Source: a virus (lineage: Duplodnaviria; Heunggongvirae; Uroviricota; Caudoviricetes). Taken from it: DNA of 5,269 nucleotides. The DNA lies in IMG/VR virus record IMGVR_UViG_2778261641_000005, positions 1-5,269 of that record. One strand, 5' to 3'. The stretch's first letter is position 1. Each line of letters begins with the position of its first letter. A program made the position numbers and the translations under genes. Positions 1 to 5,043 of the stretch are shown piece by piece. The notes under the pieces are model-generated. The model saw nothing but the letters and a program-made list of their open reading frames with translations. It had not been told where the DNA came from and searched no databases.

Positions 1-852
1 CTGGAAATCCTCGGTACATTCATCGCGGGTGTCTGGGTATCCAAGGTTCTGGGGGCTTTCGGAAAAATATCAGGTTTGCCGGTACCGCCATGGTTAAAAG
101 GCTGGATGGCTTATGCTGCTTATTTGTACTCCGATCGCGAAAATATTGGTGCCAGTGCGAAGTCATCCTGGGATTACACGAAACAAAATATTGGAGATTC
201 ATTGCGCTGGCTTGGCATTGATACCGATTTTGGTCGTAATCCTCATACCGTAAAAGGCGCAAATATTCAGTCAGATATTCCAGGTGCTGAGCCGGAACAA
301 CATGCACAGGCTACGAAGCGAGGAGAACGGAATAACAATCCGGGAAACCTTAATTTTGCTGGTCAGGCGGGGGCTTCTCTTGAACGACCGGGCGGGCGAT
401 TTGCCAGATTTGAAACCGCTTTTGATGGATTACGGGCTCTTGCTCGTCAGTTAATGCTGTACGCCGGACGGGGAATAAACAGTGTGGAGAAAATTATCTC
501 TACCTGGGCACCTGCGTCTGATAATAACAACACAACCGCGTATATCAGGGCTGTATCGCAACGACTGGGAGTGGATCCCCGGGCTGCCCTGAATATGAGC
601 GATCCGCAAACCATGTCAGCATTGATGAGCAGCATTATCCAGCATGAGAATGGAAGAAATATCTATTCTCGAGAGCTGATTAATAAGGCTGCCGTGGCGG
701 GAATTAGTGGCAAAGTGACAGAGGTTAACCAGCAAAATACCTACCATATTTACGGTGGCGGAGATCCGCACGCTGTCGGTAATGAGGTTGCACGTCGGCA
801 ACAGTCTGCAAATGCTCAGGTCATGCGAAGTAATCAGGTGAGGGTGGGTTAG
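1..852 (+). CDS. Probable phage tail tape measure protein, C-terminal part (5' end lies outside the window)
   Basis: Frame 1 is open from base 1 (LEILGTFIAGVWVSKVLGAF... precedes the first Met at 76) and stops at TAG 850-852. A hydrophobic segment near the start is typical of tape measure proteins. It sits immediately upstream of coupled baseplate genes. Product assignment rests on position and composition, not on a search. Confidence 0.55.
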   Translation: MEILGTFIAGVWVSKVLGAFGKISGLPVPPWLKGWMAYAAYLYSDRENIGASAKSSWDYTKQNIGDSLRWLGIDTDFGRNPHTVKGANIQSDIPGAEPEQHAQATKRGERNNNPGNLNFAGQAGASLERPGGRFARFETAFDGLRALARQLMLYAGRGINSVEKIISTWAPASDNNNTTAYIRAVSQRLGVDPRAALNMSDPQTMSALMSSIIQHENGRNIYSRELINKAAVAGISGKVTEVNQQNTYHIYGGGDPHAVGNEVARRQQSANAQVMRSNQVRVG

Positions 853-1439
853 TGGATATTCTCTCTACACTTTTTCATCAGCAGAGCAGAAAAATAGGAA
901 TGATTGTTCCCAGTGTTGTTATTTCAGAGAAGCATACAGATATGCTTGAAATAACAGAGCATCCGGTAGAGGTCGGGGCCGCTGTCGCTGATCATGCCTA
1001 TAAAAAACCGTCAGAAGTGGTGATGGAGGTTGGTTTCGCCGGTGGCGGCGCATTGCTGGATTTTGCCAGTAACCTGACGGCTACCAGCCTGCTCGGCCTG
1101 AGTCCTCAGCAGACGTATCAGGAGCTACTGGATCTGCAGGAAAGCCGTATCCCCTTCGATGTGGTAACCGGTAAACGGCTGTACAGCAACATGTTGATCC
1201 GGGCGCTGGAAGTGACGACGGACAAGACAACAGAAAACGTCCTGTCCGCCGTCCTCACCCTGAGGGAGGTCATTATCTCCCGGACACAGCAGATTACCGT
1301 CGCGGATAAAACCAACATGAAGGAAGGGGCCAGCACGTCGGCGGTACAGAACAGCGGCAACAAAACCACAAAACCTCCAGATACTTCACTGCTGAAAAGC
1401 ATCACGGGTAACGTGGCGTCATTACTGGGGGGCGGCTAA
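852..1439 (+). CDS. Phage tail/baseplate-associated protein of unassigned family (195 aa)
   Basis: GTG start overlaps the upstream stop (TAGTG); purine-rich GAGGGTGGG lies just upstream. Long ORF with coding-like composition, co-oriented and coupled to neighbours. No family recognised with certainty. Confidence 0.7.
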   Translation: MDILSTLFHQQSRKIGMIVPSVVISEKHTDMLEITEHPVEVGAAVADHAYKKPSEVVMEVGFAGGGALLDFASNLTATSLLGLSPQQTYQELLDLQESRIPFDVVTGKRLYSNMLIRALEVTTDKTTENVLSAVLTLREVIISRTQQITVADKTNMKEGASTSAVQNSGNKTTKPPDTSLLKSITGNVASLLGGG

Positions 1440-1741
1440 TGACAATTCAGGAAATTCCGCTGACAGCGGACAACCAGCAGTTCAGCATCGTCCTGGGTGG
1501 TGTCACCTGGCGGATTAGCATCATATGGCGCGATCTGTACTGGATTATGGACCTGCAGAACGACAGAGGGGAGCCGGTAATCTCCGGTATTCCTCTCGTC
1601 ACTGGCGCTGACCTGCTGGCGCAGTACGCCTGTATGGGGCTTGGTTTTAAGCTGGTGGTGGTCTGTGATGACAACACACAGGATTACCCCACAAAAACTG
1701 ACCTGGGCGGTCGCAGCCATTTACTGGTATCAACGGAGTAA
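1439..1741 (+). CDS. Small phage tail assembly/baseplate protein of unassigned family (100 aa)
   Basis: ATG overlaps the upstream stop (TAATG), indicating translational coupling. The ORF fills the gap between neighbours exactly. Confidence 0.65.
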   Translation: MTIQEIPLTADNQQFSIVLGGVTWRISIIWRDLYWIMDLQNDRGEPVISGIPLVTGADLLAQYACMGLGFKLVVVCDDNTQDYPTKTDLGGRSHLLVSTE

Positions 1742-1743
1742 GC

Positions 1744-2808
1744 ATGTCACAGAACTGGATGAGACATTTCGAGCTGCAGCTTGTGGACGGGAACGGTCAG
1801 GGAATTGAGCTAAGTGATTTTAAAGTCACCTTTACGATCGACTGGTTCAACATCAGCAGCGCGTCCCGGGTAGGGACTATCAAAATTTATAACCTCTCGG
1901 CAGATACTGTGAACCGAATCACCGGGCAGGAGTTTTCGAAAGTGCGTCTGATTGCCGGTTACGACGGTATCGCGCCGGAGGTGTCGGCAAGCGACGTCGG
2001 GACCGTGCGGGAAGTTGACGCGGCGGACGTGGGTCAGAGTGATGGCCGCAATTACGGGCTGATTTTCAGCGGAGAAATTCGCTACTCGGTCACAGGAAAA
2101 GACAGCCCTATTGATTCCTATGTCCTGATTCAGGCAGCAGATACGGATCTGGCATTTGCCACCAGTATAACCTCGCAGACGCTGGCGGCCGGTTACACGG
2201 TCGCAGATGTGAACCGTGCGCTGATGAAAGACTTTGAGGCCAAAGGCGCGACCGAAGGACTGACGCCTGAAATGCCTGCTACCGTATTCCCTCGAGGGCG
2301 GGTGCTGTTCGGCATGACACGGCATCTTATGGATAACGTGGCCGGACAATGTGGCGCAACATGGCAATTTGTGGACGGTCAGCGCCAGATGGTGGCGAAT
2401 AACGAGTATGTTCACGACGCGATTGTGCTCAACAGAGCCACCGGGCTTATCGGCATGCCGCAGCAGACTATCGGCAACGGTGTAAACGTCCGCGCTCTTA
2501 TTAATCCGAACATCCGGGTTAACGGGCTTATTCAGCTGGATCAGGCTTCCGTGTACCGCACCGCGCTGTCGAACAATGATATTGCGATGGCTGGTGGGCA
2601 GATCACCGACCAGAACACGGACGGAAATATCACGCTCAGCGGCACCACAGCACAACCTGCCAGCATCGCAACGGATGGCGTTTATATTGTGCGCGGGATT
2701 ATGTACACTGGCGATACAAGGGGCCAGGCGTGGTACATGGATATGATGTGCGAAGCGCGTGGCGCGGCGGATCTTCAAAGTCAAGGAGCAATGAATCGGT
2801 GGGGATAA
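1744..2808 (+). CDS. Putative baseplate hub-like protein (354 aa; gp27/gpD/Mu gp44-like position)
   Basis: GGAG at 1734-1737 lies 6 nt upstream of ATG 1744. The ORF starts 2 nt after the upstream stop. Size and position (after tape measure, before spike) fit a hub protein in a contractile-tail baseplate module. Family not confirmed. Confidence 0.75.
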   Translation: MSQNWMRHFELQLVDGNGQGIELSDFKVTFTIDWFNISSASRVGTIKIYNLSADTVNRITGQEFSKVRLIAGYDGIAPEVSASDVGTVREVDAADVGQSDGRNYGLIFSGEIRYSVTGKDSPIDSYVLIQAADTDLAFATSITSQTLAAGYTVADVNRALMKDFEAKGATEGLTPEMPATVFPRGRVLFGMTRHLMDNVAGQCGATWQFVDGQRQMVANNEYVHDAIVLNRATGLIGMPQQTIGNGVNVRALINPNIRVNGLIQLDQASVYRTALSNNDIAMAGGQITDQNTDGNITLSGTTAQPASIATDGVYIVRGIMYTGDTRGQAWYMDMMCEARGAADLQSQGAMNRWG

Positions 2809-2810
2809 GA

Positions 2811-3275
2811 TTGAATAAGAAAGCCATTTTTATTGCAATAAGTTTACTTGTTCCGATGTCGGGATTATCCGCTCCTGGGAAGTATGAAAAAATGGCTGTT
2901 GATTTAATGGATCAGCAAAAGTTTACGCAGTGGCAACATTACGCCTCTGCTACTCCTTTTTTCGCTATGAATGGTCGCAGATTCGCCATGACCATTGATG
3001 ATTTCGCGGATATAGTCAGCAACTCCTTTCAAGAATGCGAAGACCTGGATGCCTACACCAATCGGAAAGGAGCTACGGATGATTGTAAGTCCTATGTTTA
3101 CAAAGGCATAAAGGAGTGGGTAAACCTCTCTCAAGATAAGTCTGTTAGCGATACAGCATGGAAAATGGGCCAGCGCTATGCCTTCAACACACGTAATCCT
3201 ATTGCCCATAAAAACGCATGGGATTTCAATGGGATGGCGGCCGGTATTCGCGTTGCTAAATCTCAAGGTTATTAA
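2811..3275 (+). CDS. Secreted/periplasmic protein of unknown function with N-terminal signal peptide (cargo gene)
   Basis: Proposed TTG start at 2811 gives MNKKAIFIAISLLVPMSGLSAPGKYEK..., a classic positively charged n-region plus hydrophobic core; GGTGGGG lies 7-13 nt upstream. The open frame reaches back to GTG 2730, but that would overlap the hub gene by 78 nt and bury the signal peptide. The mature part has two Cys (QECEDL...DDCKSY) and no recognised motif. The gene is AT-rich relative to the flanking structural genes. Confidence 0.6.
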   Translation: MNKKAIFIAISLLVPMSGLSAPGKYEKMAVDLMDQQKFTQWQHYASATPFFAMNGRRFAMTIDDFADIVSNSFQECEDLDAYTNRKGATDDCKSYVYKGIKEWVNLSQDKSVSDTAWKMGQRYAFNTRNPIAHKNAWDFNGMAAGIRVAKSQGY

Positions 3276-3344
3276 GTCATGGATGCACCGAAAATCATCG
3301 GTTCTTTCCCGTGTAAAAAAGTGGCTGGGCGATGATTTTTGACG

Positions 3345-3360
3345 TCCATAATATTATGGA
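3345..3360. promoter_or_regulatory. Perfect 16-bp palindrome TCCATAATATTATGGA (candidate operator)
   Basis: The sequence is exactly self-complementary. It lies in the AT-rich intergenic region immediately 3' of a TTGACG hexamer (3339-3344). Confidence 0.5.
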
Positions 3361-3437
3361 TGAACTGTTGCCAATTGCGCTAATTTTAACAAAATAATAC
3401 TGGTTAACGCATTTTTTGAACCATCTGTACACAGTAG

Positions 3438-3466
3438 TTGTCTATACTTTACCTTAAAGGTAAACT
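3438..3466 (+). promoter_or_regulatory. Candidate sigma70-like promoter overlapped by a perfect 17-bp palindrome TTTACCTTAAAGGTAAA (3448-3464)
   Basis: TTGTCT (3438-3443), 17-bp spacer, TAAACT (3461-3466); alternatively TATACT at 3443-3448 as the -10. The palindrome has 8-bp arms around a central A and overlaps the -10/+1 area, about 35-60 nt upstream of the ORF starting at 3501. Hexamer matches are imperfect. Confidence 0.35.
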
Positions 3467-3500
3467 CTGCGCTCCACTGATGTTCACTATGGGAGGGGAT

Positions 3501-3740
3501 ATGAGGAAAATCGTTAATCGTTACTTAGCCGCTGCCGGTAGTGTTATGGACATTATGCCGACTACAGATTACTGGCAATATGCTGCTTCTGGATCTGATT
3601 GTCGGGCAATAAGAAGTGATGTTAAAGTCATTGCAAGTGACATGAACAGAGTTATCAGGTATGAGTTCAAAACCCCGCAAGCAGGCGGCCGTTCTCAAAA
3701 AGCATCAGGAAAACAAAGCGTCGCAAAAAGCCGTTCCTGA
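3501..3740 (+). CDS. Small basic hypothetical protein (79 aa); possible regulator or partner of the downstream membrane protein
   Basis: Strong Shine-Dalgarno GGGAGGGG (3491-3498) sits 2-4 nt before ATG 3501. The frame is open from TTG 3438, but the RBS favours 3501. The C-terminus is Lys/Arg/Ser-rich. The last 80 nt overlap the next ORF in another frame, so reality is uncertain. Confidence 0.45.
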   Translation: MRKIVNRYLAAAGSVMDIMPTTDYWQYAASGSDCRAIRSDVKVIASDMNRVIRYEFKTPQAGGRSQKASGKQSVAKSRS

Positions 3741-4233
3741 TTCGGATGGTATCGACGAAGATATTGATTCCTCGGAATATGATGAGTCTCAGGAAGTAGT
3801 GGAAAAGCTGTCTGCAGTTGCCAACCTTGATCCTGAGCTAAAATCGAAGTTAACACCTGAACTTCTTGAGAGAGTTTCTAAGAACCCGAAGGTTATTGCC
3901 ATGTTTCAGCAGGAGTCTTTTCAGGGACCACTCCCACCTCCTGCTATGCTCTTACAATATAATCAAATATTACCCGGCGGCGCTGAGAGAATTTTCAGGC
4001 TAACCGAAAAAGAGCAAGAGCATAGGCATAAGACGCAAAGTGATGCATTACTTGGTGCGGTTTCACGCGACAAACGTGGGCAATGGATGGGATTTTGCAT
4101 TGCAATGGTAGTGCTTATAATGGCTGCGTTTTTTGCTAATCGCGGTAACACTTGGTTCGCAGGTACTCTTGCTACTTTAGATCTCGTAGGATTAACTACA
4201 GTGTTTGTTTATGGTAGGAAGAAACCTAAATAA
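3661..4233 (+). CDS. DUF2335-like predicted membrane protein (190 aa)
   Basis: Contains FQGPLPPPAMLLQYNQILPGGAERIFRLTEKEQEHRHK, which I recall as the hallmark of the DUF2335 family (motif recall, not searched). This is followed by two predicted transmembrane helices (WMGFCIAMVVLIMAAFFA and FAGTLATLDLVGLTTVFVY) and a basic tail GRKKPK. The N-terminus is a charged low-complexity region. ATG 3661 is the only start in the open frame, and its own SD is weak (AGGT). Confidence 0.7.
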   Translation: MSSKPRKQAAVLKKHQENKASQKAVPDSDGIDEDIDSSEYDESQEVVEKLSAVANLDPELKSKLTPELLERVSKNPKVIAMFQQESFQGPLPPPAMLLQYNQILPGGAERIFRLTEKEQEHRHKTQSDALLGAVSRDKRGQWMGFCIAMVVLIMAAFFANRGNTWFAGTLATLDLVGLTTVFVYGRKKPK

Positions 4234-4248
4234 TCCATACATCCTTTC

Positions 4249-4276
4249 AAACCCGCTTCGGCGGGTTTTTTGCTTT
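4249..4276 (+). terminator. Rho-independent terminator
   Basis: Stem AAACCCGC (4249-4256), loop TTCG (4257-4260), stem GCGGGTTT (4261-4268), running into a T tract (4266-4271) then GCTTT. It lies 16 nt after the TAA stop at 4231-4233. Confidence 0.8.
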
Positions 4277-4290
4277 CTGGAGCCTACTAA

Positions 4291-5043
4291 ATGGCCGTAT
4301 CTGACCAAACCCGCAGCGGCGACCTTGCCGAAACATTCAAATCTGAACGGGAAACCACAAAGAACCAGATCCGCGTCGCTTTGCCTGGCATTATTCAGTC
4401 ATTCGATCCTGACGCGGTTACGGCGGTTGTGCAGCCTGCTATCCGTTACGTTGAGATCGATAACGATGGTAACCGGGTGACAAAACCTTACCCGCTGCTG
4501 GTGGATGTTCCCGTGGTATTCCCAACGGCCGGGGGAGTTACTTTAACGTTGCCGGTGAGCCCCGGCGATGAGTGCGAACTTAAGTTTCAAGACCGCTGTA
4601 TTGATTTCTTCTGGCAAAACGGTGGAGTGCAGGAACCTGTCGACGACCGCATACATGACCTGTCCGACGCCACCTGCTCAGTGGGTCAAATATCTCAGCC
4701 CAACAAAATTAAGAATGTCAGCACCACGTCGGCGCAGCTTCGAAGTGTTGATGGAAGTACGTACATCGACCTTAATCCGGATACGCAGAAAATTAAAATC
4801 GTAGCGCCTGGCGGTCTGGATGTAGTTACCCCGCTGGCCGACTTCTCGGCGAAAGTAACCATTCACGGGCTACTGTCCTGGCTGGGTGGAATGGTGGGGT
4901 CTGTTGCTTCTGGAGTTGCATCCAAAATCACCGGCGCTGTCGAGTTTATCGGTACCGTTAAAGCTAACGGCAAGTCAATTGATGATACGCACACGCACGG
5001 CGGGGTTCAGCGAGGCGGAAGCAACACAGACGGGGTGAACTGA
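4291..5043 (+). CDS. Baseplate central spike / baseplate assembly protein V-like (250 aa)
   Basis: GGAG at 4279-4282 lies 8 nt before the ATG. The N-terminal region resembles gpV/Gp138-type spike proteins. The C-terminus has a Gly-rich region ending in DDTHTHGGVQRGGSNTDG, with a His-x-His motif like the apex of P2 gpV-type spikes. Position is directly upstream of the next baseplate gene. Confidence 0.85.
   Translation: MAVSDQTRSGDLAETFKSERETTKNQIRVALPGIIQSFDPDAVTAVVQPAIRYVEIDNDGNRVTKPYPLLVDVPVVFPTAGGVTLTLPVSPGDECELKFQDRCIDFFWQNGGVQEPVDDRIHDLSDATCSVGQISQPNKIKNVSTTSAQLRSVDGSTYIDLNPDTQKIKIVAPGGLDVVTPLADFSAKVTIHGLLSWLGGMVGSVASGVASKITGAVEFIGTVKANGKSIDDTHTHGGVQRGGSNTDGVN

Follow-up and report, generated by a model that had tools for sequence, protein, structure and literature searches.

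To our knowledge, the molecular workings of few periplasmic exclusion proteins from Gram-negative phages are understood. Phage lipoproteins of the Cor and Llp type are exclusion proteins directed to the envelope, where Cor and Llp block outer-membrane receptors, and their genes adjoin those for tails or receptor binding. Spackle of phage T4 works in the periplasm, has a disulfide bond and inhibits gp5, the lysozyme of the tail (PMC7677548). In HK97 the gene for gp15 lies between those for the tail chaperone and the tape measure, and whether gp15 blocks DNA entry depends on the tail that the incoming phage has (PMC3594210). TsiV3 neutralises a peptidoglycan hydrolase borne by a spike protein (PMC4832377).

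We compared with these systems one gene of a 5,269-nucleotide window, the whole stretch of viral DNA analysed here. It covers tail-tip genes of a temperate myophage of E. coli, kin of Salmonella phage SEN34 (Brunovirus) and of Escherichia phages vB_EcoM-689R2, 606R2 and 611R5, and every gene listed in it lies on the + strand (Table 1). The hub gene also has a match to the Pfam family E217_GP41 (E 5.6e-05) that falls short of the curated cut-off. The product of the target gene is best described as a phage accessory protein targeted to the envelope, and its main interest lies in its conserved link with the tail-tip module and with satellites.

Table 1. Features of the 5,269-nucleotide window and what each assignment rests on
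Feature	Positions	Strand	Evidence or remark
Tape-measure protein C-terminus	76-852	+	PHROG endolysin and tail-injection transglycosylase matches; PGAP name lytic transglycosylase
Dit-like protein	852-1439	+	
Pam3 gp18-type plug	1439-1741	+	
Baseplate hub, 354 aa	1744-2808	+	PHROG 196 baseplate hub, E 2e-88
Shine-Dalgarno-like sequence GGTGGGGA	2798-2805	+	Within the hub 3' end, 5 nt before TTG
Target gene, 154-aa precursor, stop included	2811-3275	+	Same call by PGAP; dN/dS 0.05-0.20; start fixed by stops in homologues
Predicted Sec (SPase I) signal peptide MNKKAIFIAISLLVPMSGLS	2811-2870	+	Charge, hydrophobicity, -3/-1 rule
Mature 134-aa domain	2871-3272	+	AF2 model; family alignments
Cys76 codon	3036-3038	+	Invariant in 28/28 aligned members
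Cys92 codon	3084-3086	+	Invariant in 28/28 aligned members
Remnant of alternative 111-aa exported-protein gene, MDAPKIIGSFPCKKVAGR	3279-3335	+	Last 18 codons plus stop
Second exchangeable cassette	about 3333-4245	+	Breakpoints against HCM-22C-2 and 689R2
Promoter-like site in AT-rich leader of second cassette	3368-3395	+	Consensus scan
Small ORF, phrog_26284	about 3501-3740	+	Overlaps the DUF2335 gene
DUF2335 membrane protein, phrog_3996 'moron'	3661-4233	+	
Terminator-like hairpin	4249-4268	+	8-bp stem, 5 G-C pairs, T-rich tail
Baseplate spike	4291-5043	+	Pfam spike N-terminal domain, E 4e-36; GpV Apex motif; downstream boundary of the variable slot

The target protein and T4 Spackle are alike in being small, phage-encoded and compactly folded with a high content of helix, in having a cleaved export signal and in having a disulfide, which for the target is a prediction. 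They differ in size and architecture, since Spackle has 75 aa and is all-helical whereas the mature target has 134 aa with an N-terminal three-stranded sheet, and Spackle is an early gene of a lytic phage. Spackle acts against incoming tails in the periplasm, a role that we can only propose for the target. We found no similarity to Spackle in the sequence or fold of the target and, unlike the case of Spackle, the co-occurrence data for the target family described below argue against one specific enzyme as its partner.

The likeness to HK97 gp15 is one of genetic setting, both being accessory proteins of deviant base composition encoded in a tail operon beside tail-tip genes. Gp15, however, is an inner-membrane protein of the YebO family whose gene has a promoter and a terminator to itself and is active in the prophage, whereas the target is predicted to be soluble and periplasmic, has no detected promoter or terminator and looks coupled to the hub. 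Vibrio cholerae TsiV3/TsaB (PDB 4NSR) and the DUF1311/LprI-type periplasmic proteins resemble the target, as modelled, in being small, exported helical bundles. The phage lipoproteins of the Cor/Llp type find a parallel in distant members of the target family that have lipoboxes, but the target itself has neither a lipobox nor sequence similarity to them and, as a soluble periplasmic protein, is not placed for blocking an outer-membrane receptor as they do.

The target ORF runs from TTG 2811 to TAA 3273-3275 (154 aa) and begins 2 nt downstream of the hub stop codon (TAA 2806-2808), and the identical start is called by RefSeq/PGAP in E. coli KSC64. The start codon at 2811 is TTG and not ATG. 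The original prediction had considered that the true start might be GTG 2730 or 2748, and both are excluded by homologues, several lineages of which have an in-frame stop 21-29 codons upstream of the mature N-terminus. The sole start common to all lineages lies 19-21 codons ahead of the mature N-terminus. GTG 2799 (MGIR-LNKK...) may be used in the E. coli lineage and would merely lengthen the n-region. The mature region is under purifying selection (dN/dS 0.05-0.20 over 17 distinct alleles), and all 17 mature coding sequences have 134 codons each and are free of indels. These comparisons strongly support the target as a real gene.

Two of the loci call for remarks on their annotation and state. 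For Hafnia phage yong1 (L051, NC_073022.1, 5001-5465), the deposited homologue starts at an internal ATG (5055) and thereby loses its signal peptide, while the conserved start lies at about 5001, immediately 3' of the hub gene. The best-matching E. coli locus, in KSC64 (L001, NZ_CP018840.1, 4156-5042), is a decayed prophage. It has lost the genes for neck, sheath, tube, tape measure and Dit, so that a truncated head-morphogenesis gene now borders on that for the plug, and it retains the hub, the target gene, the DUF2335 gene and the spike.

The N-terminus of the target has a net charge of +2 (MNKK), a hydrophobic region with a 10-residue Kyte-Doolittle maximum of 3.09 from residue 5, small residues at -3 and -1 of the cleavage site and no L-x-x-C lipobox. 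All full-length homologues keep the character of a signal peptide while their first 20 residues are nearly unrelated in sequence, and conservation starts exactly at xPGKYE, right behind the signal peptide. These features are conserved in kind over about 35 homologues down to 18% identity, and every full-length relative carries either a signal peptide or a lipobox, the latter in distant members. The Sec-type signal peptide of the original prediction is borne out by its charge, hydrophobic core and -3/-1 residues and by this conservation, and export of the target protein to the periplasm is well supported at the level of sequence. The cleavage site had probably been placed one residue too late. 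Signal peptidase I does not tolerate proline at +1. The family consensus is AxA/xPGK (the slash marking the cut), with which GLS/APGK agrees whereas LSA/PGKY would place proline at +1, so cleavage is most likely to occur after S20 and not after A21.

The mature part is, as first described, a hydrophilic domain with two cysteines. Both C76 and C92 are invariant in the 28 aligned family members, down to 18% identity, from which we infer a Cys76-Cys92 disulfide. The residues invariant throughout this 28-member alignment are the two cysteines and a tryptophan; F118, W121 and R126 (A4 numbering) are near-invariant, the motif S-x-D-x-x-(I/V)-S-x-x-A-W recurs in the family, and the mature domain has the conserved C-terminal motif WDFNG(W/M)AAGIRVAKS(K/Q)GY. 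Judged by its pattern of conservation, the mature domain looks like a binding scaffold and not an enzyme.

AF2 produced a confident model of the mature domain (pLDDT 87, pTM 0.83), with a predicted order of one helix, a three-stranded sheet and five helices. A Foldseek comparison of this model, a check proposed together with the original prediction, returned no match in PDB or BFVD at E up to 0.001, and a profile search of PDB sequences gave a chance match only (E 1.6). The structural resemblances of the model are too weak for assigning a function.

Scans of the target and 28 family members against Pfam, PHROGs, NCBIfam and PADLOC yielded no usable result: the target matched nothing in Pfam or NCBIfam, and none of the defence-protein models of PADLOC-DB 2.0 at E up to 1. 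The sole weak PHROG match (phrog_19308, E 0.054) was set aside. By these scans the protein, which could not be assigned by eye at the outset, belongs to an undescribed family. A word-indexed search of 5.8 billion proteins found 15 clusters, all from Enterobacterales and all "hypothetical", and a HMMER profile search of 1.84 billion representatives found 25 proteins only. A second profile search added members from Pantoea and Acinetobacter, likewise nameless and lacking Pfam domains. Among 50,697 phage records, Hafnia phage yong1 alone has the gene, and we found no functional information in the literature on Lpg2271, SEN34 or Hafnia phage yong1.

The members fall into four architectures: a signal peptide followed by the domain alone; a signal peptide and domain with a C-terminal K/E-rich coiled coil; a signal peptide or lipobox and a domain of about 160-220 aa ahead of the target-type domain; and a signal peptide and Sel1 repeats ahead of the target-type domain.

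The target gene stands out from its neighbours in base composition, with a GC content of about 44-46% compared to 52-57% in the flanking structural genes, and GC is 0.40-0.46 across about 2700-4350. Comparison with E. coli PI24 places the cassette breakpoints at 2775/2776 and 3277/3278, which bound 502 bp (2776-3277), so that the exchanged unit consists of the last 11 or so codons of the hub, the ribosome-binding site and the target gene. To estimate prevalence we searched 5,426 complete E. coli genomes with positions 2700-3450. This query matched 293 genomes, mostly through the hub 3' end only, and the target gene is present in 12 of the approximately 293 genomes that have the hub end. In PI24 and phage 689R2 the slot is occupied by an unrelated 111-aa protein with a clean signal peptide (MKRLCLALVMMVTAPAMAA/IQC...), which takes the place of the target in most related E. 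coli prophages and was found at 80% or more of its length in 67 of the 5,426 genomes. Several other occupants of the post-hub slot are also small exported or membrane-anchored proteins, and Pfam scans of eight slot proteins from relatives gave no matches.

What follows the target gene in the window is, by this comparison, the scar of a cassette swap: the remnant at 3279-3335 derives from the 111-aa gene, and in other lineages tblastn finds remnants of differing lengths behind the target gene, a pattern suggestive of replacement that was repeated or went on progressively. The cultured relatives vB_EcoM-689R2 and SEN34 lack the target gene, which is thus no universal component of E217/Pam3-type baseplates. 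In the virion structure of E217 the hub is gp41 and the tip is gp43, and gp42, expected by its number between the two, goes unmentioned in the main text (PMC10329688). Sequence comparison strongly supports the view that the target protein is dispensable for the virion.

The contexts of the family members are more restricted than the word cargo, used in the original prediction, would imply. In 22 of 22 IMG/VR loci, and in Klebsiella, Prodigiosinella and Hafnia phage yong1, close homologues (53-99% identity) lie directly after the hub gene, and the hubs beside them are 58-99% identical. Two more distant members, P0019 (39%) and the two-domain P0025 (28%), are each the sole gene between hub and spike. 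The coiled-coil members P0021, P0022, P0039 and P0046, of which P0039 and P0046 come from Acinetobacter, are encoded in this same tail type between the genes for the tape measure and Dit, a placement found in four phage lineages. The two-domain members P0020 and P0027 are found in satellites with integrase, AlpA and primase genes, once adjoining tail-fibre and fibre-assembly genes, while the Sel1 fusion P0018 has a context without recognisable phage genes. With Enterobacterales and Acinetobacter members the family spans two bacterial orders and two different slots. On this sequence evidence it is linked with the block of tail-tip genes in E217/Brunovirus-type myophages and with their satellites. 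The accessory status implied by cargo stands, as the cassette of the gene is low in GC, cultured relatives lack the gene and it can be replaced; a free-standing moron it is not, and a reading as random cargo would not lead one to expect the link to the tail-tip block of one tail type.

In the satellites (L021/L022 6001-8769; L015-L018 6001-7125), the integrase/AlpA/primase (DUF927) genes are accompanied by a two-domain homologue, and that of P0027 has a clear lipobox. In L021/L022 the genes behind the homologue are a 79-aa ORF, a tail fibre with a Collar domain and a fibre-assembly gene, and next comes a toxin-immunity pair with the annotations bacterial RNase A-like and CdiI-type. It appears that this phage type was the source from which the satellites captured fibre genes and accessory genes of the tail tip. 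In an Acinetobacter venetianus prophage (L054 6917-7510) the family member is followed by a HicB-like (DUF1902) and HicA toxin pair, so the tape-measure/Dit slot also collects accessory genes.

The C-terminal lytic module of the tape-measure protein (window 76-852; L005, L019, L011, L054) is swapped among relatives. It is of the SLT type in some Klebsiella prophages and Hafnia phage yong1, of the Peptidase_M23 type in a metagenomic phage and of the Phage_lysozyme2 type in the Acinetobacter prophage, and the type in the window matches PHROGs and not Pfam. The target family co-occurs with SLT, M23, Phage_lysozyme2 and the Pfam-unassigned lytic domains alike. Its alleles do not co-vary with those of the spike or of the tape-measure C-terminus, and an identical Klebsiella protein, P0006, is found with tape-measure proteins both with and without SLT.

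A consensus scan of 2400-2811 found no sigma-70-like promoter site, with the proviso that weak or unusual promoters may escape such a scan, and a scan from 3275 to 4249 found no terminator-like site. Escherichia, Klebsiella and Prodigiosinella share a layout of a GGGG run, TAA, 1-2 nt and a TTG or GTG start, and the target looks translationally coupled to the hub gene. Since the scans gave the gene neither a promoter nor a terminator and it appears coupled to the hub, expression late in the lytic cycle is at least as likely as expression from the prophage, and we infer from these signals that expression is weak, coupled and late. Morons are defined by deviant base composition, patchy presence and their own promoter and terminator (PMC3594210). 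The target gene shows the first two of these features; it is not a classic moron, because its own promoter and terminator were not found and its start lies right behind the hub stop. The strong hairpin listed in Table 1 lies just beyond the end of the second cassette and about 20 nt before the spike gene, inside the presumed late operon, and late transcription would therefore need read-through or antitermination.

The leading explanation for these observations, which we put forward tentatively as possible rather than probable, is that the target is a non-structural accessory protein with a periplasmic anti-penetration (exclusion) role against phages that have the same tail tip. Translation from its weak TTG, 2 nt behind the hub stop, would give small amounts of the protein alongside the late tail-tip gene products, and the protein would be exported by Sec and cleaved after Ser20. 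In the periplasm it would fold into a compact 134-aa alpha/beta domain, the fold probably locked by the Cys76-Cys92 disulfide, and would interfere with penetration of the envelope by incoming phages of like tail tip. Its ligand might be a tail-tip component that reaches the periplasm or a host envelope factor which that component needs, and the effect would be one of superinfection exclusion or of a shield against lysis from without. In its logic such a role would recall T4 Spackle and HK97 gp15, to which the target is unrelated in fold and family. A tight, allele-specific partner is unlikely given the absence of allele co-variation with spike and tape-measure and the presence of P0006 both with and without SLT; because alleles do not track and the lytic domains are mixed, a conserved phage or host partner is the likelier one.

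Exclusion genes are usually expressed from a repressed prophage. Prophage-stage expression of the target is doubtful because no sigma-70-like promoter was found upstream, and this counts against the exclusion reading, as do the absence of homology that would connect the family with a function and the negative result with the PADLOC models.

A broader form of the exclusion reading, which we regard as doubtful, is that the family is a new class of periplasmic anti-injection proteins for E217/Brunovirus-type tails, housed in the tail-tip operon and in satellites and directed at a conserved target. The satellites would then have captured the domain fused to a lipoprotein domain, and sibling and helper phages would be blocked at the step of periplasmic penetration. 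The bound partner would be a conserved tail-tip or host envelope component and not a particular lytic enzyme.

Alternatively the protein may help late in infection in the periplasm of the producing cell, by timing or assisting lysis or by sparing progeny from the dying cell and its debris. T5 Llp keeps progeny from being wasted in this way. The hub coupling and the lack of an own promoter, which point to late expression, agree with such a role, as do the tie of the family to a structural module and the lipoproteins and coiled-coil tails of its distant members. It is nevertheless unlikely, for a soluble periplasmic protein without a lipobox cannot mask the outer face of a receptor, no lysis cassette lies near the target gene, and the gene is optional among close relatives. 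A spanin-like role, an idea that came from the distant coiled-coil tails, was rejected in the absence of a membrane anchor, a partner lipoprotein and a lysis cassette.

It is conceivable that the protein benefits the host as a conversion factor, be it immunity to type VI or colicin-type toxins, a lysozyme inhibitor or a virulence factor. Many periplasmic immunity proteins are, like the target as predicted, small, exported and cysteine-bonded, and the distant P0018 sits apart from recognisable phage genes. We consider this improbable: no promoter for expression in the lysogen was found, no effector gene lies nearby and neither Pfam nor NCBIfam gives a match, while a strict link to one tail module and to satellites is not what a general host-fitness gene would predict.

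The observation that tape-measure proteins carry lytic domains (Table 1, and SLT, M23 or Phage_lysozyme2 in relatives) and that some family members lie directly 3' of the tape-measure gene would fit a Spackle-like inhibitor of the peptidoglycan-degrading C-terminal domain of incoming tape-measure proteins. This is quite improbable in view of the identical P0006 adjoining tape-measure proteins with and without SLT and of the four different lytic-domain types that co-occur with the family; the lysozyme inhibitors Ivy, MliC and LprI, moreover, are not among the Pfam matches at E up to 10. A structural or assembly protein of the baseplate with an uncleaved hydrophobic N-terminus is highly improbable, because the conserved position between hub and spike over 53-99% identity and the tight coupling to the hub gene are outweighed by virion-forming cultured relatives without the gene, by its low-GC cassette and replacement by an unrelated exported protein, by distant members that have lipoboxes or occur in satellites without baseplate genes, and by the silence on gp42 in the main text of the E217 virion-structure paper (PMC10329688).

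If the family proves to consist of exclusion proteins, it would represent a new fold with probably a new target. It would also yield a rule for finding candidates, namely an exported protein whose gene follows that of the hub or the tape measure in one tail type and which also occurs in satellites. Should the function turn out to be trivial, the corrected start and cleavage site and the defined domain family would remain useful for annotation.

The same results would, if true, point out two slots for exchangeable accessory genes in a group of prophages common in E. coli and present in Klebsiella too, both genera being relevant to phage therapy. The second cassette is exchanged independently of the target cassette. 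In relatives its slot holds a pair of 243 and 142 aa, a 170-aa protein or other small exported proteins, none of which has a Pfam match. It looks like a hotspot for accessory or defence genes, and the 142-aa protein of the pair has, read by eye, a HEPN-like AISRAYYxxYH motif.
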